Assembly (NCBI RefSeq): GCF_030684315.1
Contig: NC_081377.1
Location: 32,922,001 to 32,986,000, forward strand
Length of the DNA: 64,000 nt
Source: Stegostoma tigrinum
Lineage: Eukaryota
Direction: 5' to 3'
Positions 1 through 49,915 of the stretch are shown in pieces; position 1 is the first letter of the stretch; the number at the start of each line of letters is the position of its first letter. The notes under the pieces are model-generated. The model was not told the origin of the DNA. It saw only the letters and a program-made list of their open reading frames with translations, and did no database searches. Position numbers and translations under genes: made by a program.

Positions 1-3000
1 AAATGCTTGGTTTGTCGACGTGCGTTGTGTACTCGCTGGTAGTTCTGGATTCTTTCTCCATGATACCTGCAGAGTGTCACATATTTACAGAACAATGTTA
101 GTAAGGACAATGCAGATACATCACAACCGTCGTGACGCACGTCTCCTCCCACCGCCAGTAGTGGGCGACAGATCTATGGTAGCATCCCAGACAGTACACC
201 AACGCCCCCGTATGGACCGCCGGCGCGGCCCCACAGGCAGCCCCCGCATTGGACAACACACACATAACACACACACACAGTACCAAAGATTAGTATTCGA
301 CACATTCAGGTACATTAGGTACTACAAACTTGAGAACTAGAAAATATTTTTCTTAATTGCTGTTCTCCAGTTTGACAGGAACAAGGTTTTGAGGAACACA
401 CAGTTCCCAGTTTCAATATTTCATGCAGTAATTGAAAAATTCTCAATAGTTCAACACTGCTTCTCCTATAAGCAGAGCATCACTAGTGACAGCCTGTTAC
501 CAGTTGAACTTATGTGCAGTAAAAACATTCACATGTGGAAAATTCTCAGTCACTAACAAACTAAGAAGAAATTTGAATCACTTACCCAAATCCTCGTTTA
601 CACTTAGGGTTTTGTCCATCATTGTCCAGAGCATCAGCCAGACCGGAACGACTGGATCCAAGGCCTTGCCCATCTCTCCATCCCTGCTTTTCCATCACCT
701 TCCTGCCAATTCCCTAGGTAAGAATCAGAAAGTTCATAATGATCAACATTAGAATGACATCACGGACATCACAGACACTGTGGACTGAAGGAGCTGTTCC
801 TGTGCTGTACTGTTCTATGTTCAATTATACAAAAACAGCTCAGAATTATTCAGGGAGTACCACACTGTTGGGAAGTATAGTCAATAAAGCCTCTGAATAT
901 TTGTTTAGGGGACACAAAATCTTAGATAATTTTTCCCAAAGAAAAACAAGGCGTTGTATTGCAGCCAACATTTGTCTTTCAACCAACATCAATGCAACAT
1001 GCAAAACAGTCTGATCATTTAAGTTCCTGCCATGGATGATGCGTGCAATTGGCTTGTTTACTACAGAAGTAATTTAATTGTTATGAGAATTAAAAGATTG
1101 GAGAAGCTAAATAGTTCACTCTTGTTTCTAGAAGGCACGGTGGTTAATCCCACGGATGCAAAAGTTGCACATGTTTCCTATATAATTGCAGTAGCAATGA
1201 TTTGCAGTAAATCTACACACAGCATAAAGAGAAAATGCGGAAAATACTCTGCTGGTCTGATTGCATCTATGGAGTGAGAAACAGAATTAACATCTTAGAA
1301 CTGGAACCTTTCATCAGAACAATTTTGAAATGTTTTTATTTCAGATTTCAAGCATTCCCAGCATTTTCCTTTTGTGCAAGTCTATACACTTTGTCAGTTT
1401 GAAAAGCATTTAAAATGGTTACAACAAGATGCATTTTTAATAGTTGCTGATTCTCTGTTTCATATGAAGAGCAATAGAAACCAGATTATTACTAAAGTTT
1501 GCTGGAAGGCTCTGAATCAAGCAGACAGTCTAAACACACACATTTAGCAGAATCATCAGTTTATAATTATGAACTATTTGGAATAAGCAAAACAAAGAAA
1601 CATGCTTACCTTAGTATATCGTTCAAAACCTCCAATACGTGGGGACTGCACCGAGACATTCTCCTCACCCTCTCTCTGCCGTTGTTCTAGCCTCATCTGC
1701 ACATAATCCCGTGAATCTTTATCTCCTCCATCTGTGCAAAATTTGAAAAGTAACATTTTCCACGCTCTGCATTATAACAAAAACTCATTGTGGGCAAAGC
1801 TTTCTAACAGTCACTACTCAGGCAAAACAAGCAACTTGCATTCATGAGGGTCCACCATAATATTTCACCATTTTGTTGCATTTCCAAAGGATAATGAGGA
1901 ATCAAATTCCAAAGGCACATCAAATAGTAAAAAATCATAAAGAACCCATTCATCCAAACTGACCTTTATGATAATATACACTCATATCGACGTCCCAGTC
2001 ATCTGCCGTCTCCTCGTCAAAATCTGGAAGAAAGCAACAGAAATCAACCATTGACACCAGCCATTACCTGCCCATCAACCGAGCAACTACTGGACCAACC
2101 GTTTCATGTTTATTCCAATTCTAAAAATCCCCATATTACAACCTACCTCCTTTCTCCTCCTGCCAATATTGAGCATCTGTATAAAACACAAGTCCAGATC
2201 CTCCTTTTTCCCACTTGAGTTCAATCTCTTCCTCATAGAGTCGTTCCTTCGTCCTCTCCTGAGTCGTAACATCCTCGTAGAGCGCTTCATGCCTCTCCCA
2301 TTCCTCACATGTATCATTGTCCTGGGAAAAACACAAAGCTTGGTGACCAGCCACAAACACTACTTGCATTTATACAGTGTAACACAACAAAACTGTTCAT
2401 ACTGCACAACCCAAGAACCAGCCCCTTGAGCCATCTTTGACTATCTATCGATCCTAATTCAGGCTCAAGTTCCAATCCTTGCAGCACCCATCTCACCATG
2501 ATGCCAAAGGAGAATGCGTCTGGTGATGGGGCCACTTCAAAAATATCCATGACCTTTCCCCACACCAAAGCATGAAAATGTTACTTACTTCGTCAGAACA
2601 CGACTCCTCTCCCTCCACCTTATCCCCTCGCTTCAAAGACTTCCTGTGTCCTGTCCCTTGTTGCTTCTTTCCTGTCTGCAGCACAGGAGCACATACATCT
2701 CTCTGTGGGATTTCTCCTTCTACAGCTGTATACACTGCCTCTGTACACAAAGAGGAAGCAGTGTTCGGGTACTGAAAAGGAACATTACCATAACGCCTGT
2801 TGGAGGTTGTCTTGGGAAATTTCAGATCAAGCTTGGTGATGATGCGGGGAGGCAAACGGCATGTTTGGATCAATTCTAGGAAGACTCTCAGCGGCGTACC
2901 CACATTCCCATTGGGCATCAGCGTTGGGGGATTTAACTCTGGTAATCTGGACAAGTCCTCAGGTGTGAAAGTCTCACTTAGAGCTCTCCGACTCCGAAGT

Positions 3001-5597
3001 TCCTTTCTGGTTTTGTACGAGAACAGCTGAGAATCTGTTGAAGAAAACCAATAATGAATATAGATCTCTTCCCATACAGAATAACAAAATCCAAAAATGT
3101 GTACACACTAAAATCTCCAGACACATGGTCTAGGTGGGTTGCTGTTCAGAGGGTAGGTACAGACATGAGGGGCTGAATGCACTACAGGCATCTATGAAAC
3201 TGCCAAATGGTACTTGCAATAGAATTGGACAGGTCCTCCTTCCAACCTACAAATTGCTTCCCAGATTCATGATACTTTATAGTGGCACTGATCTGCTCAT
3301 ATAGGTCTGAAGGTGGAAAGTTCAGCCAGCCAAGCTATAAGATTTCATTACTTGAAATAGATAGCATATTTTAAACAACAAAACTTCATAGGAGAGTTAT
3401 CTAGTTTTGGATCAGTAGTGGGGAAACTATTGGAAAAATTCTGAAATTTTCAAAGATTGGATTTCTGCTTAGAGAAGCATTAATCAATCAAGATGGGCAG
3501 ATTAGAGATTTTGTCTAACAAGTTTGATTCAATTTTTCCCAGTGACCATGTGTACATGAGGGTAGTGGAGTTGATGTTGTCTGCATGGACTTAGAGTCAT
3601 AGAGGTACACAGCACAGGAACAGACTGTAGAGTCCAATTCATCCATGCCGACCAGATATCCTACATAAATCTAGTCCCATTTGCCAGCATTTGGCATGTA
3701 TCCCTCTAAATCCTTCCTATTCTTACACCTATCCAGATGCCTTTTAAATGTAATCATACAAGCTTCCACTACGTTCTTTGGCAACTCATTCCATACTTCA
3801 GTAAGGTTTTTGACAAGGTTTCACATGGCAACTACTCAGAAGCCTGTGGATTTTGGGGAAAATTGGAAATTCAAAATAGGCTTAGCAACAGGAAGCAGTC
3901 CATGTCCAAGATTTGACGCTGCATCCTTTGCTGTTTGTAGACTACATTAATGATTTAGACATAAATGTAGGAAGAATGATCAGTAAGTTAACAGATAACA
4001 AAAACTGATGGTATTATAAATAGCAAGGAGGAGAGCCTTAGACGACAGGACAATATAGACAGCCTGGTCAGTTAGGCTGAACAATGCAAATGGAATTTAA
4101 TACAGCAAATTGTGAGGAGATACATTTTGGGAGGACTAACAGAGCATATTCTACTAGCTCTGCTAAACTTCTCTACCATTCTGTGTTTGTTTCAGATTAC
4201 GAGCATCCACTATACTTTGCTTTTCATGTGCAGTTTTAAGATGAGGAGCAGAAAGTTTAAGGGGCTTTGAGGAATTTGCTGGCTGAAAGGGTGGCAGGGA
4301 TACTTAGGACAGGAATTGTTTGTTGGCTTGCCAAACTGACTGGATTTCGTGCAAATGTTTTGTCTCCCTTCTAGGCGAGATTGTCAGTGCTGTGCTGTGT
4401 AGCCTCTGTTAAAGCTCTGTTGTTCTGTCCCACTCTGAATTTATATGGTCCAGTCTGTCACGGTGGGCAGACTTGTAATATAGTGGTATGTAGACAGGTC
4501 TATTTCAACATGTTTGTTAATTGCATCGATGGTGGAAAATCAGACCTCCAGGAATTCTTGCACTTGTCTTTGTTGCGCTTGTCTTAGTACTGTAACTTTG
4601 TCCCTGTCAAATTGATGTCCTTCTGTGTTGGAGTATATTGAACCGAGGAGGAATTGGTCGTGCTGTTTTGCTGCGAGTTGGTGTTCATCTATCCTGGTGA
4701 TGAGTTTCCTGCCCATCTGGCCTATGTAGTGTTTCTCACAGTTGCTGCATGGTATTTTATATACCACATTTGTTCTGCTCATTGTGGGTATGGGGACTTT
4801 CGTCTTTGAGAGCAACTAGCAAAGTGTGGCTGTTAGTTTGTGTGCAATCCTTATTCCAAGAGGTTGTAGTTAGTTCTGATGAGTTTTTAACATAGGGTAG
4901 GGTGGCCAGTGTGTTGGGGTGTCTTCTTGGTATTGGTTGTTGACCAGGCATTGGCGGACGAAGCTGTGAGGATAACCATTGTTTGCAAAGACTCTGTTTG
5001 GTGTTTCTCTTTATTTTGCGCAGCTCTGGATGTGACATGAGTCAAACAGAGTTTAAACATGAATTTAAACAGAGTCCTGACACAGTTCTGTTTGTGAACA
5101 TTGGGATGGTTACTGTTGTAATTCAAGATTTGGTCTGTGTGTGTAATCTTTCTGTATACGCTGGTAAAGAATTCGCCGTTGTTCTTTCATTACGTCTTTC
5201 ATTACGCCATTACATCAACACCAACTCGTAGCAACTGCCCCCTCCCCCAACCCTGACCTGCAATCTCTGCCGCTCGGACGATACGGATAAAGCAGCGACT
5301 CTGCAAACTGTCTCCGACCCTATCCAGCCACTGACAGCCATCGTACATCAGCTGAAAGCTGGAGGCTCGCTCAGCTGGCAGCCGAACCACACAGCAACAG
5401 GTCGGGCTGCGGCCTGGCTCCGGTGCTGTGTCCTGCGTCGAAGAAAGCGGCCTCCTCCTTTCGGGCCGGTGCCGATAATGAAAACAGCTGAAGCCACCGC
5501 TCTCAGTGAACTGTGAGAACTGATGGCGAAGATCAGCAGAACGAAGACTGCGCGGAATATTCCCGACAACAGCATAAACGTAATCCTGTGCCGCCAT
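1..5597 (-). CDS. GPATCH3: G-patch domain-containing protein 3; 7 coding exons, last exon runs off the left edge
   Basis: Exons with phase-consistent GT-AG junctions: 5597-5258 (MAAQDYVYAVVGNIPRSLRSADLR..FHYRHRPE), 3034-2589 (LPELNPPTLMPNGNVGTPLRVFLELI..RRYGNVPFQY), 2321-2147 (EEWERHEALYEDV..KWEKGGSGLVFYTDAQYW), 2023-1964 (DFDEETADDWDVDMSVYY), 1731-1610 (DGGDKDSRDYVQMRLE..GGFERYTK), 713-586 (G-patch GIGRKVMEKQGWRDGQGLG), 66-1 (YHGERIQ...). Motifs match recalled vertebrate GPATCH3; syntenic with NR0B2/NUDC/KDF1. Confidence 0.95.
3385..4145. mobile_element. Old CR1 LINE fragments with a nested CR1 3' end (3592-3797, minus)
   Basis: Decayed RT-like stretches (VCMDL..FDKVSHG; CEEIHFGRTN) and a CR1 3' UTR resembling the copies at 14617 and 62122. 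Confidence 0.6.
4310..5200 (-). mobile_element. Degenerate Penelope-like element (Poseidon-type GIY-YIG endonuclease end) in GPATCH3 intron 1
   Basis: ORF 4540-4815 NVVYKIPCSNCEKHYIGQMGRKLITRIDEH (GIY-YIG); upstream fragments NYNSNHPNVHKQNCVRTLF and TLPYVK; several frameshifts; decayed hammerhead-like motif at ~4356-4387. Confidence 0.8.
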
Positions 5598-8166: not shown

Positions 8167-8274
8167 GGATTGTTTGTGGAGCATTTATAAATTGGTGCTA
8201 AACTTCTTTGGCCATAATATAATAATGCACCGTTTTTGGTCAAGTCCTGGAGCGTTACATGGACCCAGAGTTTC

Positions 8275-8420
8275 TGGCTGTCAGATAAGATGTTTAACCA
8301 AGGGCCTGGATGCCTGCATAGGTCAATATTAAAAATCCCATATGGCACTATTCCAAAAAAGAGGAGGGGATAATGTCCCTCGCGGCCTGGACCAATATTT
8401 ATCCTTCAGTCAATATCACT
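8275..8420 (+). mobile_element. Deu-domain SINE fragment (SacSINE1/AmnSINE1-like)
   Basis: AAAAATCCCATATGGCACTATT...CCTGGACCAATATTTATCCTTCAGTCAATATCAC resembles the recalled Deu-domain consensus; related pieces at ~29140-29330 (-). Confidence 0.6.
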
Positions 8421-9067
8421 AGTTATCAACCCATCACACTGAAACATTAGCTTTATTTCTTCTCTTCTCATGCTGCCTAACCACTGAGTATTCGGGTTCA
8501 GTTTTCCAGCATCCAAAGTATTCTGTTTATGTCCTTAAAGTTGCCTTATCTCTGTCTTTAACTGTTACTGGTGTTCCCTGAGCAGCAATTCAGCTTCAAA
8601 GATCTAATTTTCATCAACAGGATAGAGCAGCAGATATTGGTGACCGAGACTTTATACAGAGCTGTAGGATGTGCTTTGCTGGCGTATTAGGAGAAAGGAG
8701 TGATACATAAGAGAGAAAAAAAGTCAGCAAGTCCTGAGAATGGAAGCCCAGAGTCATTAATAAGATGAATGATTGAGCTTTAAGGCTTGTTTGTCTCTTT
8801 AAACTAGAGCAATAATTTTAAATGGTTTTGGGGAGAAATAAGTACAATATTAAATCTATTGTTCAACTATTTAAACTTCATAATATGACTATGGACAATA
8901 ATTGAGTCATATTTCTAAACATGAAGCTTAAAGAGACAGAGCAGTTCAGGGAACAAGTCACATTAGCAGAGATAATGGGAACTGCAGATGCTGGAGATTC
9001 CAAGATAATAAAATGTGAGGCTGGATGAACACAGCAGGCCAAGCAGCATCTCAGGAGCACAAAAGCT

Positions 9068-9095
9068 GACGTTTCGGGCCTAGACCCTTCATCAG
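9068..9095 (-). ncRNA. Minimal type I hammerhead ribozyme motif (inverted arm copy)
   Basis: Exact reverse complement of 10757-10784. Confidence 0.7.
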
Positions 9096-10399
9096 AGAGG
9101 GGGATGGGGGGAGGGAACTGGAATAAATAGGGAGAGAGGGGGAGGCGGACCGAAGATGGAGAGTAAAGAAGATAGGTGGAGAAGGTGTGGGTGGGGAGGT
9201 AGGGAGGGGATAGGTCATTCCAGGGAAGACGGACAGGTCAAGCAGGTGGGATGAGGTTAGTAGGTAGCTGGGGGTGCGGCTTGGGGTGGGAGGAAGGGAT
9301 GGGTGAGAGGAAGAACCGGTTAGGGAGGCAGAGACAGGTTGGACTGGTTTTGGGATGCAGTGGGTGGGGGGGAAGAGCTGGGCTGGTTGTGTGGTGCAGT
9401 GGGGGGAGGGGATGAACTGGGCTGGTTTAGGGATGCAGTGGGGGAAGGGGAGATTTTGAAACTGGTGAAGTCCACATTGATACCATATGGCTGCAGGGTT
9501 CCCAGGCGGAATATGAGTTGCTGTTCCTGCAACCTTCGGGTGGCATCATTGTGGCAGTGCAGGAGGCCCATGATGGACATGTCATCAAGAGAATGGGAGG
9601 GGGAGTGGAAATGGTTTGCGACTGGGAGGTGCAGTAGGATATTCCACTCCCGCACATCCCAGATGTCCAAGTTCTTTAAGGACCGCAACTTCCCCCCCAC
9701 GGTGATTGAGAACGCCCTTGACCGCGTCTCCCGCATTTCCCGCGACACATCCCTCACACCCCGCCCCCGCCACAACCGCCCCAAGAGGATCCCCCTCGTT
9801 CTCACACACCACCCTACCAACCTCCGGATACAACGCATTATCCTCCGACACTTCCGCCATTTACAATCCGACCCCACCACCCAAGACATTTTTCCATCCC
9901 CACCCCTGTCTGCTTTCCGGAGAGACCACTCTCTCCGTGACTCCCTTGTTCGCTCCACACTGCCCTCCAACCCCACCACACCCGGCACCTTCCCCTGCAA
10001 CCGCAGGAAATGCTACACTTGTCCCCACACCTCCTCCCTCACCCCCATCCCAGGCCCCAAGATGACATTCCACATTAAGCAGAGGTTCACCTGCACATCT
10101 GCCAATGTGGTATACTGCATCCACTGTACCCGGTGCGGCTTTCTCTACATTGGGGAAACCAAGCGGAGGCTTGGGGACCGCTTTGCAGAACACCTCCGCT
10201 CAGTTCGCAACAAACAACTGCACCTCCCAGTCGCAAACCATTTCCACTCCCCCTCCCATTCTCTTGATGACATGTCCATCATGGGCCTCCTGCACTGCCA
10301 CAATGATGCCACCCGAAGGTTGCAGGAACAGCAACTCATATTCCGCCTGGGAACCCTGCAGCCATATGGTATCAATGTGGACTTCACCAGTTTCAAAAT

Positions 10400-10516
10400 C
10401 TCCCCTTCCCCCACTGCATCCCTAAACCAGCCCAGTTCATCCCCTCCCCCCACTGCACCACACAACCAGCCCAGCTCTTCCCCCCCACCCACTGCATCCC
10501 AAAACCAGTCCAACCT
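10400..10516 (+). repeat. 39-bp tandem repeat x3 in the Penelope ORF tail (mirrored at ~9336-9452)
   Basis: Translates as SPSPTASLNQPSS / SPPPTAPHNQPSS / SPPPTASQNQSNL. Confidence 0.8.
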
Positions 10517-10756
10517 GTCTCTGCCTCCCTAACCGGTTCTTCCTCTCACCCATCCCTTCCTCCCACCCCAAGCCGCACCCCCAGCTACCTACTAACCTCA
10601 TCCCACCTGCTTGACCTGTCCGTCTTCCCTGGACTGACCTATCCCCTCCCTACCTCCCCACCCACACCTTCTCCACCTATCTTCTTTACTCTCCATCTTC
10701 GGTCCGCCTCCCCCTCTCTCCCTATTTATTCCAGTTCCCTCCCCCCATCCCCCTCT

Positions 10757-10784
10757 CTGATGAAGGGTCTAGGCCCGAAACGTC
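10757..10784 (+). ncRNA. Minimal type I hammerhead ribozyme motif in the Penelope pLTR
   Basis: CTGATGA-A-GGGT(CTAG)GCCC-GAAA-CGTC: intact core, helix II, palindromic ACGT helix III, GUC cleavage triplet; helix I only ~2 bp (CT/AG). Confidence 0.7.
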
Positions 10785-11841
10785 AGCTTTTGTGCTCCTG
10801 AGATGCTGCTTGGCCTGCTGTGTTCATCCAGCCTCACATTTTATTAAGTCACATTAGCAGTTGGTTTTAGTTTGTGAAACTTCCAAATCAGAAAACTTTG
10901 GCTGGAAATCTGCAGGTTATTAGAACCGAGAAAGTTTAAGTTCTCAGATTTGAGAGAAGCTCATGTCACCAGCAATGTTTCCACTTAAGCTATGTAATTG
11001 CAACAGCTATTCTGAGTGTCCATGCATGCAGATTAGCAGACCAACTCATTTACTCTCAGTTTCTCAGCTGTTGCTGTGCAAGGACTTTGGAATTCTGCAC
11101 AGCAGGCGGAGAAGTTGGAGGAAATGTAGATCAACAGGCTTGGTAAAGATTGATTAAATTTTATCCACAGTCCATGCAAAGCAACTATAAGAAGTCAGTT
11201 AAGTAAAACCTCAGAGAGTTTAGGTTGGTGTGTATTTTCTCTGATGTTGAGTTCCTATAATGGACAGTGTTGAGAAATGGATTCAAACTTTGTCCTGCTG
11301 TATGTTTTAGATCTTGATATTATTACAATCCATTTAGGAAATTATTTTGATTCTCAAATACCACCACTACTGTAAAAGTTAATGGTTTGGTTTAATCAAA
11401 GTACACAAAGTCCCCAATGGAATCAATTTTCAGAAAGTGCTGACGAGGTGTTCATAATTATCAAGAATTCTGAACAGTACGTTCTAACCATTGGTAAGTA
11501 AAACTGTGAAATACCAATATAAAACTCAAGTAATCCCTTTTGATCTCCTATACGCGCATATAGACAGACACACACAATAAAGAAAAACACAGGTATTATG
11601 GGTAGATGGAAAAAAATGGGGTGAATACAGTTCAATAGCACAAGTCCACACAGTTTGATGAGTTACTCCTGTTGCTTCCTGAGATTTCCTGTTCTTTGAA
11701 ATCCTTCCTCCAGCTCATTTCACTTCTTCACAGAAGTCACAGGGCTATGCTACATTAATTACAAAGTCTCTTGGTCACTGGTCAAATACAACAACTTACA
11801 TCAACCAGTGGGAGAAAAAAAATGACTTTCTTCAACTTCAG

Positions 11842-12736
11842 CAAGTTTGCAGACGACACAAAGGTCGGAGGTGTCGTTGACAGTGTAGAGGGCTGTTGTA
11901 GGCTGCAGCGGGACATTGACAGGATGCAGAGATGGGCTGAGAGGTGGCAGATGGAGTTCAACCTGGATAAATGCGAGGTGATGCATTTTGGAAGGTCGAA
12001 TTTGAAAGCTGAGTACAGGATTAAGGATAGGATTCTTGGCAGCGTGGAGGAACAGAGGGATCTTGGTGTGCAGATACATAGATCCCTTAAAATGGCCACC
12101 CAAGTGGACAGGGTTGTTAAGAAAGCATATGGTGTTTTGGCTTTCATTAACAGGGGGATTGAGTTTAAGAGTCGTGAGATCTTGTTGCAGCTCTATAAAA
12201 CTTTGGTTAGACCGCACTTGGAATACTGCGTCCAGTTCTGGGCGCCCTATTATAGGAAAGATGTGGATGCTTTGGAGAGGGTTCAGAGGAGGTTTACCAG
12301 GATGCTGCCTGGACTGGAGGGCTTATCTTATGAAGAGAGGTTGACTGAGCTCGGTCTCTTTTCATTGGAGAAAAGGAGGAGGAGAGGGGACCTAATTGAG
12401 GTATACAAGATAATGAGAGGCATAGATAGAGTTGATAGCCAGAGACTATTTCCCAGGGCAGAAATGGCTAGCACGAGGGGTCATAGTTTTAAGCTGGTTG
12501 GTGGAAAGTATAGAGGGGATGTCAGAGGCAGGTTCTTTACGCAGAGAGTTGTGAGAGCATGGAATGCGTTGCCAGCAGCAGTTGTGGAAGCAAGGTCATT
12601 GGGGTCATTTAAGAGACTGCTGGACATGTATATGGTCACAGAAATTTGAGGGTGCATACATGAGGATCAATGGTCGGCATAACATTGTGGGCTGAAGGAC
12701 CTGTTCTGTGCTGTACTGTTCTATGTTCTATGTTCT
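11842..12736 (+). mobile_element. Young 5'-truncated CR1 LINE with 8-bp TSD
   Basis: Open frame from KFADDTKVGG to the ORF2 stop at 12649; (TGTTCTA)n tail; TSD AACTTCAG at 11834-11841 and 12737-12744. Confidence 0.95.
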
Positions 12737-13660
12737 AACTTCAGATACATTTAGTGCTGAGAAATACAGACACAGCAGTCCAGAGGGTTCTCCCACACTG
12801 TAAACGTCTGTCACTATATCATATCCTGAAGTTGCTAATCAGAGGGTTATCATCAGACAGATGACATTTGGCATCCACAACCAGTCACATTTGTACAGAT
12901 CATCAGTTATCTGTTACCAGCTGAATCACTCTCTGCACACACATATCACAGTAATGTGGCCAGTTATCTCACCTCCTCTACTGCTAACAAAGTAACAGTG
13001 TCAACAAAACTCATAATAATTCCAGTAACTTGTTTTCAAAAGTGCAACAATTCCGTCCCTAGTCCTTGGTTTGAAAAATAGTCTTTCTCTAAACAGTAAA
13101 AAGATGTCGTCTTTACATGCCTCCATCCTTATGAAATATGAAATGCGATTTCAAAACTGCACTTCATCACAAGAAAGGTGTCACACATACAAAGAAAGAT
13201 GAGACTTACAGCTATGTATCCTTCTTTTCCCCCTTTATTGAACCTTATATAACCTTCGGCATTTCTTAAACCTTTAACTTATTCCATCATTTTACACTCA
13301 GAACAATGCATTTGCAACCACATTACGCTTCTCAGCAATGAGAATAATCTTTATATTAAATAGTTGCAAAAACAAACTAAATAGTCTTGCAGAGATAGTA
13401 GAAACTGCCGATGCTGGAGAATCTGAGATATCGCGGTGTGAAGCTGGATGAACACGGCAGACCAAGCAGCTTTAGAGGAGTCTCGCATCTGGATTTTAAC
13501 ATTTTCAATGAATGCCAACTTATTATCATCAGTATAGATGAATGTTTCTCTGTTGCTGTGTCAGTCATAGACTTGAAGTGCCAATAATAATCCAAAAGCC
13601 TCTTTTTCAATGATTGAGTATTTTCTCTGATACTGATTTAGTTTCTCAGCAACATACCTC

Positions 13661-13733
13661 ATGGTCGGCACAACATTGTGGGCTGAAGGGCCTGTTCTGT
13701 GCTGTACTGTTCTATGTTCTATGTTCTATGTTC
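13661..13733 (+). mobile_element. Very short CR1 3' end with (TGTTCTA)n tail
   Basis: Near-identical to 12670-12736; similar stub at ~765-823. Confidence 0.85.
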
Positions 13734-14616
13734 ATCCTATAACAGGGATGCACCTACCCCCAGGTAACTTACGTCAATTGCCATTTTAAGAGATCTGGAA
13801 AAACTAGAGACAGCCAGCACTAGTTCTTGTATTAGGAGTGCCTTCATCTTCTCAAAGGCTGCCTAGAATTCTACTAACCATGCCACTTGTGTTTGTTTTG
13901 TTTTCTTAAATTCATTACGGGTACAATTATTGTGTTGAATTTAAACACAAACATCTGGTAAAATCCACATTCCAAGAAATCAAATGATTTCTCATTTAGT
14001 TTTAGGAACAAAGAATTATGTCAGAGTCTTCACTTTCAATGTTCTTGGCAACGCTTCCCTTTGTCCAATGATATATCATAGCTAAGTCAATTTTGCTTTC
14101 ACAAATTTGCTTTTGGTTAAATTTATCATGAAGCCATCCATATGTAATTAGTTAAACATGTCTTACCTTACATACTGTTCTTATACATTAATTACTATGC
14201 ACCATAAAATTGTCTAAAGAAAACTACACCATTACATATTTCAGCTACAACTTGATTCATAAGTCTTTGGAATGTAAAAGGGGCATTCTTGAACACAAAT
14301 TATATAATTTGAGATTGTCATCCCAAATAGGTTATACCAGAAGTGTCTTTATAACCCCTGATGTTAATAGCACTTGCCAATACACCTCAGTAGATCCATC
14401 TTAGAACAGAACACTGCCAACCCTATTAATACTATCAAAAAAGCCAATGAACTGCAGATACTGGAAATTGAAACAAAAATAGAAATTGCTGGTCTCAGCA
14501 GGTCTGGCAGCATCTGTGGAGAGAAGACAGAGTTAACGTTTCACGTTATTTCTTCAGAATGGATTGTAGCTAGGAAGAGGTGGTATATATGTTGGAGATG
14601 GTATTGGGGGTATTAT

Positions 14617-16544: not shown

Positions 16545-18180
16545 TTAGCATTATCGCTTGACATTCAATGGTGTTCTCATCACTGAATCCCCCAGAATCA
16601 ACATCCCTGAGGGTTACTATTAACCAGAAACTGAATTAGACTTATCATATAAATAAAATGGCTACTCGATCAGGTCAAAATCCTGAAATTCCTTACCTGA
16701 CAGCATTGTAGGTCTACCTACAACCACCTGCACCTACCTACCTGGACTACAGCAGAGCAAGAAAGCAACTCACCACCATGTTTTCCAGGGCATTAAGGGA
16801 TGTTTGATAAATGCTGGCCCAGCCAAGATACGCACATCCCATGTGTGAATAAAAAATTCAGATAAGCTACTTTATTACGCCTCCTATGTATTTGTATCAA
16901 CCACTAAATTTTACTCTAAAAGGTTCACCTTGCAAAGGCAACATTACCAATACTTCATTTCCCACTTGAAACATTATAGTTGAAGAATGTTTATTCTTTC
17001 ATTTTTGCTTGTGAAACTTTTCAATGGTCTTGTGATATCTTACATGATCTTGTGAGTCTTTCTAGACAGATGGAAACGTGATCCAAAACTAAGGATTTGT
17101 CTTTTTGTCTTAAGAAATTCTTCTCAATCAATTTTGATGGATTTCTAATCTCAGAGCCGTAAATCAGTTTAAATGGGCTAAACCTAGGTGGAATCATTGA
17201 GAAATTTCTCGTAGAAAATACGAAGAAATCAATTCCTTGCCCCAAACCTGAGTTTCCGTGCTTTAATCATGGTTTTGAGAATTTGATGTTACATCTCCAA
17301 AGCTCCCTGTATTTGCAGATGACACACCATTGACTCTGATTGTGTTGTACCCAGCGTGCTGACGATGTCTGAAAACTTCACACAAAAAAGTAGAATCCTG
17401 ATTAAATTGTAGCTCATTTGGTCATTCAGAACAAATAAAAGACTGTGTTAACTTTTCCACTATCATTCTAGTTGTAATTGTCCTTAAAAGAATAACTTCT
17501 TGACTTAGGGTTGTTATAACCATAACTGTAGGGATAAACTGATGTCCTGCTTTCATTTTTAGCAATGGTCCCTCACAATCTACACAAAGTCAACTGAATG
17601 ATTCTTCAAAAGCTGCTATAAGAATCTAATGAAGAATCTGATGAAAGGTCTAGGCCCAAAACGTCAGCTTTTGTGCTTCTAAGATGCTGCTTGGCCTGCT
17701 GTGTTTATCCAGTTCCACACTTTGTTATAAGAATCAAAGGTTCTGGTTTAATTATTTGTTGAAGTTTACCTAGTACTGATATGTTTTACAGAACTGCACT
17801 ATGTTGTTATGAATTCGCGGCCATGTAAAATATCTGTTTATAAATGCTTGCATTGTCTGTATTCCCACATGACCCACCATAGGAATTTCATAAGCTACTC
17901 ACAATATCTAGCTGGTACACTACTTTATGAGCACTGCACATTCTTAGCACACAAGTCTGTAAAAGTGACCCCAATTCTTCATCAGAACTTAATTTTCAGT
18001 AATAATGATGTGGAGGTGCCGGTGTTGGACTGGGGTGATAGCTACTTCAAAGGAATTTGGGGATATACATATTCATATTAATCAGTTAAAACCTTCTAAT
18101 TGATTAAAGATTTAACAGCACCTTATGTCTGTTCAGAACATTCTCATCAGGGGTATGACCCTTTGATCTTTTACTTATCT

Positions 18181-20400: not shown

Positions 20401-20900
20401 ACTTCCTGTTTTATTTCAAGATTTCCAGTAACAGCAGTATTTTGCATTAATGTGACTGAGTAGCCTATTCTTACTCCTGAGCATGAAATGACCCACACAC
20501 AAATGGACGAATTTCCAAAATGATTAGATATGTGCCAGTTGGCCCCAGATGGTACAAGATGGAAATCAATTAGCAATGGTTGCCACTGATATTAAACTGA
20601 ATTAAATGCCTATTTTTAAAACTTGAGGATTTCTTTCAATTGGAAACAAGAGTCTTGTCACAGTAAAACTGTCTCTAATAAAATGTCCAGTCTTCCAAAA
20701 TAAGCAAACCAATTTTATTCAGGATAAAACTAAATTAATACAAAACAATATAGAGAAAGTTCATCCTGCTCCACACTTTGTTATCAATGGAGAAAGAGGA
20801 GCCTGGTATGGATAACCAGCGAATGGCAAGTGATGTGGCTGGGCGCTAAGTGAGTGAGTGGCTGAGGTGAGGTGCAGTCAGACCCTATGAACCCATTTCC

Positions 20901-22857
20901 TCACTGGGAATATAACATTTCGAACAGTAGTTCCTTCATGTTTGCTGTCCCGATCACTGGCCTGAAGAACAGCTCGATGATGAGTCCGGTGCTGACAGTT
21001 TTCAGGGCGGGCACGGCGAGTAAAATACAGGCGAAATGGCTACTGCCCTTGGCCGACACCACGATCTCATACAGTGCGCGCTGCGCTTCCCGCTGAAGGC
21101 TCTCAATGTAGCCAGCAAGCTCGGAGTCCAGGCAGGTCTGCAAAAGTCGAGAGCACAAATGAGATCAGAGCGAAAGGAAACGGAAGCTCGGCACGTCCAT
21201 TAGCCGCTGGAATCAAAAGTTTAATGTTTCGGGTGGGAGCCTGCTTCCTGACTCAAACATTGGCTGCGGATTTGTTTCACGTTTCCAGCGTGCTCAGTGT
21301 TTAAAGCCATCTCGCTGTCTGATCCGATCCATAACCAAGGCCCGCCTCCCCCACGCTGAACAGGGCAATCTGATGAGATCTAGGGGTACAGCTTCATAGG
21401 TCCCTTGAAAGTGGAGTCACAGGTAGACAGGGTGGTGAAGGCGGCTTTCGGCAGGCTTGCTTTCATGGATCGGTGCATTGAGTAAAGGAGTTCGGATGTC
21501 TGTTTGCAGCTGTACAAGACGTTTACTGCCTGGGGTTTTATTGCCCTACTATAGAAAGGATAATATTAAACTAGAAAGAGTGCAGAAAAGATTTACTGGG
21601 ATGCTACCTGGACTGGAAGGTTTGAGTTATAAGGCCTTTGTTTCCATTGAGTGTAGTAGACTGAGGGAGTGATCTTATGGAGGTCTATAAATTCATGAAA
21701 GGCATAGATAAGGTAGATAGCCAACAGCTTTTCCCCATGATAGGGGAATTTAAAACTAGAGCGCATTGGTTTCACGTGAGATAGTAGAGATCAAAAAAAT
21801 CCACAGGGGTTTTTTTTTGGAGAGTGGCGAGTGTCTGGAATGGGCTGCCAGAGGTAGTGGTGGAGGCAAGTACAATGTTGTTATTTAAGAAATATTTAGA
21901 CAAGTACATGGATGGGATAAGGAAAGGAGGGATATGGACCAAACATGGGCAAACTAGATTAATTGTGAAAACTGGGCGGCGTGAGCAAGTTGGGTCAAAG
22001 GGCCTGTTTCTATGCAGTAAACCTCTATGACTCAATGAGTACTGGAAATCTTAAAAGCTTAGCAGAAGAGTATGTTGTGGGTGTGGAGGGGTTTACCTAT
22101 GGATGATTCTGAAGTGAGGAAATAATCACATTAGTTATTTATCCAGGAAGTACAGAGATCCCCTGATTCCTGACCCTTGTCTGGTCCTAACCCCTTACTA
22201 CGATGTGGTAGAATTATTGCTGGATTCAAGGGGGTGGGGGCAAATTTGAGACTTTTTTTTATAAAGCACTTCAGCATTACAATTTCTGTGGTTCATTACA
22301 CATACTGGAATAAAGACAAAGGCTGTTATAATTACCAGGGTTGAAAAGGATAGCTCCTTTCAAGTACGCATACTCCTTAGGACTAAGATCCAGGCCCCGG
22401 AATTTGTTCAGACACATTTTTATTCTGTGTACACCAGCAAGCATTGGCTGCCGACTCCCTTCTTCTTCTGTCCTGAGCAGATTTGGTCCATTCAGCAAGA
22501 TTCTCCTCAGCATGCTGTGACCTGGGGTCTCTATCACCTCAAAGCTCACTCTATCTTGAGCCAATCCTAACAGAAACAAGGACAGCCGGCAGCTCTCCAG
22601 CAGCAGCAGCTGGTCTGATCTGGGAAGATGATGGAATGACGGGAGGTTCCTCATAAAAGCGACTGTCTTTGCCAATACATCGGATACTGCCTGACAGGTA
22701 ACACGGGGAGTCTTCAAGCAAACCTGACTTCATAGAAGCAGTTGTGATGTGAGAACTTGCAGTCTCCACGTTGGCTCAGGATGGTGTACAAGATTGCATT
22801 CTGTCTCTTCCCAGAATCACACTGGCATTTATCAGATAGAACACTGACACAAGCCAT
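20901..22857 (-). pseudogene. NR0B2: Nuclear receptor NR0B2 (small heterodimer partner, SHP), two exons, disrupted reading frame
   Basis: Exon 1 22857-22336 (MACVSVLSDKCQC..NAILYTILSQ..; LKTPRVTCQAVSDVLAKTVAFMRNLPSF..LSPKEYAYLKGAILFNP) and exon 2 21137-20901 (DLPGLRA..; YIESLQREAQ..ELFFRPVIG). The ATG frame hits TGA at 22716-22714, and the spliced exon 2 frame hits TGA at 21105-21103; in both cases the conserved sequence continues in a shifted frame. Gene identity is very secure; pseudogene status needs raw-read confirmation. Confidence 0.85.
21370..22035 (+). mobile_element. Degenerate CR1 3' portion in the NR0B2 intron
   Basis: PYYRKDNIKLERVQKRFTGMLPGLEGLSY; VWNGLPEVVVEA. Confidence 0.85.
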
Positions 22858-23108
22858 AACTGCCTCACTGCCAAACCAGGATCACTCGGAATTTAGCTCT
22901 CTGTAATGGTGTTAACAAATTAAATGTAGTTTGAAGTGTTAATTTTAACTGGAAACCAAAATCCTCAAATTCTCTAATGCTTCAAACAACTAGTTTTAGA
23001 GCTCTGCTGAACAAGAGTTGGCTGAGAAAAGATCAGGTAGGCTCGGCTACAGCTCCCAATGTAGCACAAGCTTCCACAGGCAGCGAATGAGCTGCTTATA
23101 CCTGAGAC

Positions 23109-23450
23109 TATTTATATTGTTTCATTTAGAGACTATAAGTGACCTTGGCCAGAAAGAACAAGCAGCTTTCATTGAAAAAAAAGCTCACAGTAACTAATTG
23201 GCCCAGGGATGTATCTCTTTGGTGCCGGCCAGCAGCAGATAAGATTTTTTTCAATGAAACAGCAGGTCAGACAGATGGAAGTGGCTTATTTCGATTACCT
23301 GATGTTGTGTACACAGACTTGAAACCCACATTGTACCAGTGCACCAAGGACTGCAAGAGGCCAATAACAGAACACCAATCAGGTAAACACAGTTACAGAA
23401 AGTGATATCAGGGTAATTAGATAAGGAATATTTGCTGAATGTAGCCTTGA
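23109..23450 (-). promoter_or_regulatory. NR0B2 promoter: TATA box and NR5A (LRH-1/SF-1) sites
   Basis: Minus-strand TATAAATA at 23109-23116, CCAAGGTCA at 23140-23148, TCAAGGCTA at 23442-23450; LRH-1 is an established activator of vertebrate SHP. Confidence 0.6.
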
Positions 23451-24675: not shown

Positions 24676-26925
24676 CTAATTTAACAAGGTGTAGAGCTGG
24701 ATGAACACGGCAGGCCAGGCAGCATTAGAGGAGCAGGGAAGCGAACATTTCAGGTCTGGACCCTTCTTCAGAAATGGGGGAGGGGAAGGGGGCTCTGAAA
24801 TAAATAGAGAGGGGGGAAGGCGATGATAGAAGGTGAATAGTGGAGCAGATAGGTGGAGAGAAGACAGACAGGTCAAGGAAGCGGGGATGAAGCCAGTACA
24901 GGACGGCATAGGTAGGGAATTGGGATGGTGGTTGGTCAGTGAGGAGCGGATAAGTGGGAGGGAAGACAGACAGGTCAAGGAGGTGGGGATGAGGGAGGGG
25001 CTGGTCTTAGGGGTTGGTCGGGAGTGGGGAGATTTTGAAGCTTGCAAAGTGCACATTGAGATGTTTGGGCTGCAGGATTCACAGGTGGAATATGAGGTGG
25101 TGTTCCTCCAGTAGCATCATAATGGCACTGGAGGAGGCCCAGGATGGACAAGTTGTTCAAGGAGCGGGAGAGGGAGTTGAAGTGATTCGCAACTGAGAGG
25201 TGTTGTCATTCGTCACGAACCGAGTGTAGGTGCTGCACAAAGCAGTCTCCAAGCCTCCGCTTGGTTCCCCTGCTATAGAGGAGGCCACATTGGAAACAAT
25301 ATACCAAATTAATGGACGTGCAGGAGAACATTTGTTAAATATGGAAGGTTTTCTTGGGGCCTGGGATGGAGGTGAGGCGGGAGGTGATGGGGCAGGTACA
25401 GCATCTCCTACAGCTGCAGTTGAATGTGCTAGGGGTGGTGGGAATAGTGGAGAGTGTGAAGCGGATGACGGATTCGCAGAGAGAGCAGTCCTTCCAGAAG
25501 GAAGATAAGGGTGGGGAGGGAAATATATCCTTGGTAGTGAGGCCAGATTGCAGGTGGCGGAAGTAATGGAGAATGATGCTTTGAATCTGGAGGATGATGG
25601 GGTGATAAGTGAGGATATGGGGAATTCTGTCTTTGTTGTTATTGTGGGGAGGGGGTGTGAGGGCTGAGGTGCAGGAAATGCAAGAGATGTGGTCGAGGGC
25701 ATTTTCGACCACTATGGAGGGGAAATTGCAGCCCTTGAAAAATGAGGACATCTGGGATGACCAGGAGCAGAACACCTCATCTTGGGAGCAGATGCAGCAG
25801 AGGTGAAGGAATTGGGAACAGGGGATAGCATTCTTGCAGGAAGGTGGGTGAGGGGAGGTGTACTCTAGGTAGCTGTGGGAGTCGGTGGGCTTGAACTAGA
25901 TATCAGTTTCCAGGTGGTTACCAGAGATGGAAACAGAGAGGTCCAGGAAGGAGAGAGAAGTATCAGAGATGGTCCAGGTGAACCTAAACTTGGGGTGGAA
26001 GGTAGTAGTAAAGTGGATGAACTGTTCGAGTTCCTCATGGTAGTACGAGGCAGCGCTGATACAGTCATCGATGTAATGGATGAAGAGGTTGGGGATGCTG
26101 CCAGTGTAGCCACAGAAGAGGAACTGTTTCATGTATCCTACAAAGAGGCAGGCATAGCTTGGGCTCCTGAGGGTACCCATGGCCTTTCGTCTGTAGGAAG
26201 TGGAAGGAGTTGAAGGTGAACTTGTGAAGTGTAAGGAGAGTTCAATTAGGCAGATAAGGATGTCAGTGGAGGGGGACTGGTCGGGCCTGCGGGAGAGGAA
26301 GAAGCAGAGGGCTTTTAGGCCATCTGCATGGGAATGCAAGCATATAGGAATGGATGTCCACGATAAAGATGGTGTTGAGGACAGGGAATCGGAAGTTTTG
26401 GAGGAGGTAGAGGGCACAGGCGGTGTCAGGATGTAGGTGGGGAGTTCCTGGACCATGGGTGAGAAAAAGGAATCGAGATAAGTGGAGATAAGTTCAGTGG
26501 GGCAGGAACAGGCAGATACAATGGGTTGACCTGGGCAGTTGTGCTTATTGATTTTGGGTAGGAGATAGATATGGACAGTGTGGGGTTGGGGAACAATGAG
26601 GTTGGAGGCTGTGGGTGGGAGGTCACTTGAGGTGATGACGTTTTGGTGGTCAGGGGTAGGGTCATGATCAAGGGGGCGGTAGGAGGAGGTGTCAGAGGGT
26701 TGGTGCCTGGTCTCGGCGATGTAGAGGTCAGTGTGCCACGCGGCAACTGTGCCTCCCTTGTCCGCGGGTTTTGTAGTGAGGTTAGGGTTGGAGCAGAGGG
26801 CTGCACGTTCTGTGGGGGAGAAGTTGAGGCGATTGATGTCACGATGGCAGTTGGAGACAAAGAGGTTGAGGGAGGGTAGGAGGCCTTGAGGTGGTGTCCA
26901 AGAGGATAGGGTGTGTTGGAGGCCT
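24676..26925 (-). mobile_element. Older degenerate Penelope-like element (RT plus GIY-YIG), same family as 8970-10845
   Basis: AMGT..SPSYACLFVGY, FIHYIDDCI (RT active site), SFLDLSVSI, SQMSSFFKGCNFP..VENALD; many frameshifts; pLTR with a hammerhead variant at ~24744-24771. Confidence 0.9.
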
Positions 26926-27329
26926 TTCTAATGATGTCTACACCCTATCCATGAAAAAGAAATCATAACTGCTCCCATTATTTGGACAAATGAATTTATC
27001 CAGAGAATTTATTCAGAATTCCCAAGTGTTATTAGTGATTACATTTATATCCCCTAATTCTGGCCTCAGCTGCATGTGCTGTATTCCACCTTTCCATAAT
27101 CTTAAAAGTCATTCTTCAGTCAAAGATTCTCAAACTCTCCTCACACAAGTGAGAGTTACTGACTTACTGCAGTATTAATTACTTTAGAACTCCCACCCTT
27201 TGACCTGCTCTGGTTCCTGAGTTATGCCTTTCACAAGCTTCTATATCCTTTTCCTGGCTACTCCCCATTAAAAACAACGTAAAATAGGCGGTACAGTTCT
27301 GAAGGGGACGAAGGAGCCGAGTGGCCTGA

Positions 27330-28327: not shown

Positions 28328-41461
<13,134 letters not shown>

Positions 41462-47356: not shown

Positions 47357-49532
47357 CTAGATATAGACTTTAAGTAGCGGGGCTCCTGATGAATCTGTCT
47401 CTGTATCCTGAAGAGAATCATCTTTACGCAAACCTGGAAAGAGAGAGGGGGGAGAAACTGTGAGTGTTGGGATCTCAATTGGATTCTGCACTATGGACTG
47501 GGGTTCGGGTCATGTTCACAGTGGGATGGGGAATGGTCACATCGAGTCTGAATCGACAGCTCAGGACAGCGACAGGATAATGATCAGTACACAAACTGCA
47601 GGGAGGGGAGTGGAATGAGAGTCACATAAATTGGGCGATTGGGTGTGGGACACACAGTCAGAGGGGTATGAGGTGGTGGACTAAGACAAACGGAAAGAAG
47701 ATGGGGTGAGGTCAGAGATTGAGGGAGAGGGAAGAGAGAGAAGATGGGGTGAGGTGAGAGAAGGTGGGAGCGAAGATGGGGCAAGGTCAGGCCAGGTTGG
47801 GAGAGAGAGGGAAAAAGTACAGGGGAGGTCACAGAGGAGAGAGTAAAATAGAATGAGATGGGGCAAAGTTAGAGAGAGAGTCAGAGAGGAAGACAAGGAT
47901 GTTGGTGTACAGAGAGACAGGGATAGACACACAGAAAGGGAGGGATGAGGTTCGGGCAGGGGATTTGGGGCAGAGACACAGAGAAAAAAGGGTAAGAGGT
48001 AATTTGGAAATTACCAGGTGAACACAGCCGCTGAATTTGTCTTGCTCTCTCATCAAGCGAGTCCACCACTGAAATCTCCAGGTTAAGGTCTTAACAAAAG
48101 AGGAAGATCAGAAATCACAGCACTGCAATCACAACATCTTCCAGCCAAATCTCTCACAAAAACACATCTCTGCCCACCAGCAGATAAATAGAGCCCTCCA
48201 CAAGTGTCCCAGGTGCAAAGATAGCCAGCATAGCCCAAGCCCAGTACAACCCCACATAAGCACCCTCGCATTCTATTCCACCCAAGTGGAGCTCCAATGC
48301 ATTTCTGGCCCCTCCCCAAATTCAGTTTCAGTGCATCCATGCCTCCCCCCAATCTGGGTGCATTTCCTGTGCAATACCCTCCCTCTCAAGGCAGCTCCAG
48401 TGCATTCCTCTCCCTCCACACAGTGCAACTCCAATGCAGCTGCTGCCTCACCTTCACTGGGCAAAATAGTCTCAGTTTGAGGTCTGGGGTCAGCAGGAGT
48501 CGGAGAGATCAATCTTTCCTCAGTTGGCTCTTCTGGTCCCCTTTTCTTACTTTTCTTGGGTTTCCGGGTGCTGATCCGAACGATCCCGGTCACTATCCGG
48601 CATTCCGCATCCTTCTCATTGATCTTATAGCCTTTGGTGATGCTATCAATGAGCTCAGTGATTTCACTGCTTTTGCTGATGAATGTGGTATCGGAGGTAC
48701 ACTGGGCCAACATGTCGATCTGGTGAATGCTGAACAGCTCCAATAGCTTCTTGTTGATGTACTCGTCCAGCTCTGCACTCGACATAGACACGTTTAGCTC
48801 GTTGTTCTCCAAATCTTCCTCCAGGAAGGAGGGGAATTCATCGGAAATTCGTTTGTGAGAGATTGGTGAGATGCTGCTGGGGCTCTCTGATGGCTGAGAG
48901 TTGTGGTGGGTGTCCTTGTGGCATGAGTCTGTGGACAGAGTATGACTGTTATTTTTCCAGATTACCTGCTGTCCTCCCAACTTGACATCATAATAATTAA
49001 AACTGTTGCCCGCAAGATTAGCCTTCTTCGTGGGCCTGGATTTAGAGTTCGGGGGAGTCACTGGGTTTTCAATATACCGCAAAGTGTTACTGTCAATGTC
49101 TTTAGCATGTGTCGGTGGCTCTGTGGTCCTGGTACATGGATTATAAACCCCAGTGTCAGCCTTATAAATTCCACAGGTCACCACACAGCAGAAAACTGCT
49201 TTAACCGTCTGCCAGGTAACACAGTTTCCTAGCCCACATGACTCGCACACACTTGCCTCCTCTGTGGTTTCAACTGACCCTGGGATGAACCCAATGTTTT
49301 CCGAGTTATTCCCATTTGAATCTCTTGGATCGGCTTTACACCTGTGACTTTTTGCCAGTGATTTCCTTTCCTTCCTTTCAGCTCGTCTACTTTCTGGCGT
49401 TGAGCCTTCATAAACCTCCAGGTTCAGCGAGTCCACAGAGGCTGGCAGCAGAACTGGAGAGGCCAGAAGGCTAGGTTTGGCCACAGGCTTGTCAGCCTGC
49501 TGTGGAGCAGCTCTCCGTCCAGTTCCTTGCAT
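47357..49532 (-). CDS. KDF1: Keratinocyte differentiation factor 1, 3 coding exons, 410 aa
   Basis: Exons 49532-48452 (acceptor upstream at 49549; ENIGFIPGS, GNSFNYYDVKL, SMSSAELDEYINKKLLELFSIHQIDMLAQCTSDT..DAECRIVTGIVRISTRK), 48089-48015 (DLNLEISVVDSLDERARQI), 47433-47357 (DDSLQDTETDSSGAPLLKVYI*). The C-terminus matches recalled human DTDSSGAPLLQVYC; syntenic with NUDC. Confidence 0.95.
47690..48000. repeat. Purine-rich low-complexity tract in the last KDF1 intron
   Basis: GA-rich with repeated AAGATGGGG(T/C)..GGT units. Confidence 0.6.
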
Positions 49533-49915
49533 GACTTAGATTGAAGGACCTGTGGAATAGAGAGGACAAGCATCACACAACACACATGGCTACTGGACCA
49601 ACACATTACCACCAAAAGAAGATGACAAAATGTGTAGAGTAAACCCAAGGATATCTAGAAGAGCCCCAGGAATGTTGAGAGGGCACCATAATAACCTGCA
49701 AGCACAGTGAACCGCAGGATACAATCTGAAGGTGTTTTATCCCCTTCTCTGAATGTGACATGCAGAACCCAGGCAGGAACTGTATGGTGTCAGCCAGTCA
49801 AACTAGCGACACCTTTAGAAAGCAGTTTGAACTGACTGACCAGCTACAAAAATGTGAAAAAGAAATTCAAGAGTAGTCAGCACAGATTTCAAAAGTGAAG
49901 GATTGCAGGACAGAA

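Follow-up and report, generated by a model that had tools for sequence, protein, structure and literature searches.

Unitary pseudogenes, of which GULO and UOX are examples, are a known kind of event, and lineage-specific gene loss is common in general. Cartilaginous fishes are said to possess extra NR0B genes, reportedly described by Fonseca et al. in Gen Comp Endocrinol in 2020, and the Shp-null mouse is viable. According to PMC3346990, this mouse has more bile-acid synthesis, and mammals possess an LRH-1/SHP loop. No report of a loss of NR0B2 (SHP) in zebra shark was found in the literature consulted (10.1101/2022.10.17.512540, PMC13100897, PMC3042382, PMC13012086 and PMC3346990, in the portions accessible). 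NR0B2 in this shark is a unitary pseudogene. We consider it probable that the only NR0B2 of the zebra shark, broken by a 7-bp deletion and a 1-bp insertion, is likely fixed in this state and that its loss is likely tolerated via three NR0B paralogues.

The locus lies in the window, i.e. the whole stretch of 64,000 nucleotides of Stegostoma tigrinum DNA that was analysed, in which the following features were recognised:

585..5597, minus strand: GPATCH3 exons, synteny marker (G-patch PF01585 at 585-713; open exons; continues left of the window)
20901..21137, minus strand: NR0B2 exon 2 coding part, to the ancestral stop
21103..21105, minus strand: premature TGA, met in the exon-1 LBD frame after canonical splicing
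21117..21117, minus strand: lesion 2, 1-bp insertion (absent from run X12 of a relative; in runs X1 and X2)
21138..22335, minus strand: NR0B2 intron, GT-AG, phase 1 (high-copy repeat fragment at about 21340-22040, read depth 10^4-10^5)
22336..22857, minus strand: NR0B2 exon 1 coding part, from ATG 22857 to the phase-1 donor (Pfam PF00104)
22714..22716, minus strand: premature TGA, codon 48
22722..22723, minus strand: lesion 1, 7-bp deletion (whale-shark Q46-T47 codons gone; run X12 alignment)
28328..39184, plus strand: NUDC exons, synteny marker (Pfam Nudc_N, NuDC and CS; head to head with NR0B2)
48276..49535, minus strand: KDF1 large exon, synteny marker (DUF4656, E 5.8e-82)

GPATCH3-NR0B2-NUDC-KDF1 is also the gene order in human. 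The first-pass annotation had described the neighbouring genes as in frame; this stands for the sampled exons of GPATCH3, NUDC and KDF1, all open, at the level of exons rather than of reconstructed whole genes. The locus encodes a ligand-binding domain (LBD) without DNA-binding domain, in two exons with a phase-1 intron, and the closest database protein is the whale-shark NR0B2 (95% identical). The length expected for an intact product, about 255 aa, agrees with this intact orthologue and is refined to its 254 aa. In an NR0B tree of 48 rows, where the window is represented by the exon-1 part of the LBD (129 columns, filling 48% of the kept columns), it falls inside the NR0B2 clade (100/100) as sister to whale shark (95/84). 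Four clades are supported, corresponding to NR0B1, NR0B2 and two further classes, named C4 and C18 after their zebra shark members. By tree and synteny, the locus is the true NR0B2 orthologue.

A search of the zebra shark genome for paralogues, as had been recommended, gave four NR0B loci among 18 candidates (NR0B2, C4, C14 and C18); the three paralogues are intact and NR0B2 is single. No second NR0B2 copy or retrocopy was present among the 18 and 19 best-scoring genome candidates, and the reading of the locus as a retrocopy or duplicate was thereby ruled out. Elsewhere, the genome has two PPAR-type DNA-binding exons with an identical peptide (C4:93838458 and C13:24928577), the former apparently joined directly to its preceding exon, as in a processed copy. 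S. tigrinum is missing from the four-member orectolobiform NR0B2 cluster (whale shark, two bamboo sharks and epaulette shark) and present in both paralogue clusters. This absence would be expected if the locus had been annotated with no protein, and the annotation may already flag it.

From ATG 22857, the minus-strand frame runs for 47 codons before TGA 22716-22714, and the conserved VCLKTP...LFNP segment is read in another frame from 22723 up to the GT donor after 22336. Behind the AG acceptor that precedes 21137, the spliced frame reads DLPGLRACWLH and stops at TGA 21105-21103, the AGYIESLQ...SQ* segment lying one base off. Translation and alignment to whale shark thus bear out the frameshifts announced in both exons. 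In exon 1, seven bases (the codons for Q-T and one base) are gone between 22723 and 22722, flanked by GG dinucleotides that form a 2-nt microhomology; this lesion is a 7-bp deletion and not a 1-base slip. In exon 2, the lesion is T to TT at 21117, and this extra T is the single base by which the YIESLQ frame had been said to be too long. As the earlier reading had also noted, neither lesion sits in a long homopolymer. We considered whether the two frameshifts compensate each other (-7 and +1, sum -6); this was ruled out because a stop occurs two codons after lesion 1.

The reality of both indels was checked with four public sequencing runs aligned to window positions 20800-23100: X1 and X2, from the same organism as the window (samples S1 and S2 of one study), X12, from a relative, and X21, a bisulphite run from a separate study of which about 1% was read and whose coverage excludes both lesion sites. 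X1 and X2 each provided one contig over 20800-21429 and one over 21986-23100, none of which differs from the window by any letter or gap, and both lesions are spanned at a depth of 11-25. The lesions are therefore present in 2/2 same-organism runs covering the sites, although X1 and X2 are possibly the assembly's own source, with a platform that is not on record. In X12, seven letters are inserted behind 22722 and the base at 21117 is missing, which gives an intact frame, and its codon differences match whale-shark residues. The check on sequencing data called for by the first-pass annotation thus makes it very unlikely that the indels are assembly artefacts. Insertions such as T to TT are frequent among long-read errors, and it could be argued, given the unrecorded platform, that assembly or consensus errors disfigure an intact NR0B2; we hold this to be very unlikely, with hardly any weight left to it, since contigs independently assembled from two runs carry both lesions and a 7-bp deletion with microhomology flanks is atypical of consensus errors. 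Both frameshifts are real.

Splicing does not repair them. All GT/GC-AG pairs were enumerated in silico. With one intron, 98 open products result, none longer than 124 aa; with two introns there are 459, the longest of which has 214 of 254 aa. The 214-aa product needs poor acceptors and misses about 40 LBD residues, and so the alternative splicing that had been named as a possible escape restores the ligand-binding domain by no choice of sites. The donor CAG|GTTTGC, formed where the deletion joins its flanks, was ruled out as a rescue, no product exceeding 124 or 214 aa, and re-initiation at Met 22654 was ruled out as well, its frame still running into lesion 2. Any NR0B2 transcript would yield a 47-aa peptide with the first LXXLL-like box and no ligand-binding domain. 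A stop far upstream of an exon junction makes a transcript a decay target; because the stop is so placed here, the canonical transcript would be a target of nonsense-mediated decay.

Outside the lesions, sequence decay is limited. Over 245 columns, 10 amino-acid changes fall on the zebra-shark branch and 2 on the whale-shark branch, 1 being ambiguous (binomial p 0.039). Three of them hit columns that are invariant in 17/17 orthologues (W to R, R to H and S to P), and one change on the same branch lies at a column kept in 16/17. Compared with the intact C4 paralogue (4 vs 2), the branch excess is not significant (Fisher p 0.57 and 0.10). Against whale shark, dS is 0.096, dN 0.027 and dN/dS 0.28 (12 N and 13 S; 200 codons, 40 differences listed, with codons 1-51, and perhaps some more, lying outside), and the branch dN/dS is estimated at 0.2-0.44. 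The pairwise value is within the published range of chromosome medians for this pair of species, which, in PMC13100897, are 0.061-0.111 for dS and 0.173-0.326 for dN/dS, with a split at about 50 Myr. As a dN/dS of 0.28 is ordinary, decay is limited and the loss is probably recent. A mixed-branch estimate of its age gives 0-19 Myr, varying with the split of synonymous changes, which points to a loss late on the branch, poorly dated. Seven of the 11 zebra-shark-branch changes, assigned or likely, in window 20901-22857 are A/T to G/C, which hints at GC-biased gene conversion, the numbers being small.

The ordinary dN/dS, together with a lesion coverage consisting of contigs, which drop minor alleles, from two samples of one study, leaves some room for a real null haplotype that is polymorphic or confined to the sequenced family, intact alleles persisting in the species. 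We regard this as quite improbable, because two frameshifts and three invariant-residue changes need unselected time in a slowly evolving lineage. Moreover, at the derived codons 22398, 22453 and 22506, the few reads of X21 (2-4), from the other study, carry the window letters and 0 carry the relative's letter. The lesions are likely fixed in zebra shark, on the contigs of two samples from one study.

The whole carpet-shark lineage shows faster change in this gene, with 30-35 unique changes vs 8-10 in Carcharodon or Heterodontus, compared with 17-18 vs 7-8 in the paralogues. It also carries two in-frame deletions and a W to Q replacement where W is found in 13/17 orthologues. Per column, lineage changes are more numerous in NR0B2 (30-33 in 254) than in C4 (17 in 271; Fisher p 0.01-0.03), and they do not clearly exceed those in C18 (p 0.07). 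The loss may be placed approximately in the final third of the branch of about 50 Myr, at a time when constraint would already have loosened within the carpet-shark lineage.

The sister lineage has an intact gene (whale shark and the frame of X12). Taken with the lesions in X1 and X2, the orthology tree and the branch changes, this upholds the lineage-specific pseudogenisation that had been proposed from the sequence. Orthologues exist in at least 16 named chondrichthyans (search of 82-263 aa, best 120 of 204 matches), that of Scyliorhinus canicula being a low-quality model. Among these best 120 of 204 matches, no NR0B2 is listed for seven species that have the C4 paralogue: zebra shark, Heptranchias perlo, Hypanus sabinus, Hemitrygon akajei, Mobula birostris, Mobula hypostoma and Narcine bancroftii. 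The six further species are possible losses, and length limits or annotation could explain them. A wider reading would be that SHP was repeatedly lost in elasmobranchs because four NR0B corepressors are interchangeable, the FXR-SHP bile brake being a bony-vertebrate specialisation. With myliobatiform rays, an electric ray and the sharpnose sevengill shark as candidates and zebra shark as the demonstrated case, we find this conceivable and rather doubtful.

The three remaining NR0B genes are the following:

C4:36903991-36909345: NR0B paralogue C4, intact
C18:67850770-67866861: NR0B paralogue C18, intact
C14:56258860-56272508: NR0B paralogue C14 (NR0B1/DAX1), intact

Each has an open frame split over two exons by a phase-1 intron like that of NR0B2, to which the three are 44-50% identical, and the translations of C4 and C18 equal named Stegostoma tigrinum proteins with 0 differences, which identifies the genome as that of the zebra shark. 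In the tree, the C4 class is common to coelacanth, amphibians, reptiles and birds, and the C18 class to sturgeon and paddlefish. Databases name these genes inconsistently, the C. milii orthologue of C4 being called 'NR0B1' and members of the C18 class 'member 1-like' or '2-like'. The N-terminal ILYxIL box is conserved in C4 as well as in C18, and so is the C-terminal LLxEML helix; C4 in addition retains the middle LLRKILL box, and thus all three LXXLL-like/AF-2 boxes.

The pathway associated with SHP is not visibly decayed. CYP8B1 has a full open frame of 506 aa, and the other checks, which are exon samples and not whole genes, found three open exons in each of two CYP7 genes on C5 (one best matching CYP7A1) as well as two FXR-type and three NR5A-type DNA-binding exons in open frame, a PDB match giving the name of one of each. 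The genome also has a degraded, stop-containing copy resembling CYP8B1 (C2:138932954-138933487) and, 2.4 kb upstream of the intact gene, a short second copy of the CYP8B1 5' end (C2:150367510-150367629).

Two consequences of the loss had been put forward, rewired bile-alcohol feedback and compensation by an NR0B paralogue. The anatomical half of the second holds, with three intact paralogues; the buffering itself we infer. Given these paralogues, the open CYP8B1 and the open CYP7A1, FXR and NR5A2 exons, paralogue buffering appears more likely than rewired feedback: the three genes would supply overlapping corepressor function. Nevertheless, the low identity of the paralogues to NR0B2 (44-50%) and the retention of all four NR0B genes for more than 400 Myr argue for distinct roles and against buffering.

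Two putative promoter elements were located upstream of NR0B2:

23111..23116, minus strand: TATA-like box, 31 nt downstream of the CAAGGT core
23140..23148, minus strand: putative NR5A (LRH-1/SF-1)-type site CCAAGGTCA, proximal promoter

CAAGGT precedes TATAAA by a similar distance in C4 (32 nt) and by 22 nt in C18, a spacing pattern that was noticed post hoc against a background of 0.3-1.1 per kb. By analogy, this common layout suggests a shared NR5A-NR0B loop like the mammalian one. With its three boxes and the kept promoter spacing, C4 would be the best candidate to take over NR5A repression. Between the NR0B2 promoter and NUDC, a decayed reverse transcriptase (RT) element (24679-26927) lies 1.8 kb upstream of the NR0B2 ATG and could have displaced distal enhancers. 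It is similar to an element with a weak GIY-YIG match (402-aa frame), flanked by inverted 39-nt tandem arrays (9340-9451 and 10401-10512), in a young-looking Penelope-like cluster of retroelements at 6197-12646, which also holds a 427-aa RT frame (minus strand) and a second RT piece. RNase H and integrase zinc-finger fragments at 13564-13862 and 17773-17898 represent an old LTR retrotransposon.

With up to 1 mismatch allowed, no IR1 element was found in the 5443 nt upstream of NR0B2 or in its intron, and at 2 mismatches, 2 were seen vs 2.05 expected by chance. The promoters of NR0B2 and its paralogues are likewise at chance level, bar one C14 site and one site with 1 mismatch in the C4 intron. 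The former is a perfect FXR-type IR1 (GGGTCA-C-TGACCC) that precedes the NR0B1 ATG by about 5.1 kb, possibly in a repeat, where 0.1 is expected at one mismatch or fewer. According to PMC3042382, skate FXR is insensitive to bile salts and to scymnol sulphate, a bile alcohol, and that receptor may be FXR-beta. Because of this insensitivity and of the lack of such an IR1, rewired bile-alcohol feedback may rest on a false premise. The same facts speak for a fixed loss needing no stand-in, the FXR-SHP loop being weak or absent in elasmobranchs or feedback running through SHP-independent routes such as FGF19 or JNK; the faster change along the carpet-shark lineage points the same way, as do the SHP-independent JNK and FGF15 routes known in mammals (PMC3346990). 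We nonetheless judge it unlikely, since the IR1 evidence at this locus comes from matching a consensus to the sequence of a single, dead gene, and since NR0B2 is intact in 15 named chondrichthyans, with a low-quality model in the 16th, and hence under selection. A dispensable loop is compatible with the pseudogene call and differs from paralogue buffering, which we prefer, only in the reason for the loss.

In the zebra shark, a metabolic corepressor that has otherwise persisted from chimaeras to mammals is thus naturally knocked out, and intact relatives, some of them in laboratories (among whale shark, bamboo sharks and epaulette shark), can serve as controls. This opens the questions of whether the FXR-SHP-CYP7A1 loop exists in animals with C27 bile alcohols and whether two little-studied NR0B paralogues, missing in mammals, can replace SHP.

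Compared with NR0B2/SHP of jawed vertebrates (whale shark XP_020369760.1; mouse structure 4NUF), the locus shares the phase-1 intron after LFNP, the LXXLL-like boxes, the gene neighbourhood and an NR5A-type promoter site, whereas its frame is broken twice, an invariant W, R and S are replaced and no IR1 is recognisable. Like other unitary pseudogenes, it is a single locus with several lesions, an intact sister and no functional duplicate; unlike losses of the GULO/UOX type, it leaves three paralogues from whole-genome duplication and appears recent. Of the four-member NR0B family of cartilaginous fishes, three members still work in zebra shark, and the one lost is that of mammals' bile-acid feedback. 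Finally, SHP is absent from the whole body as in the Shp-null mouse, but DAX1 is the sole paralogue in that mouse, while the zebra shark has three, and C27 bile alcohols.
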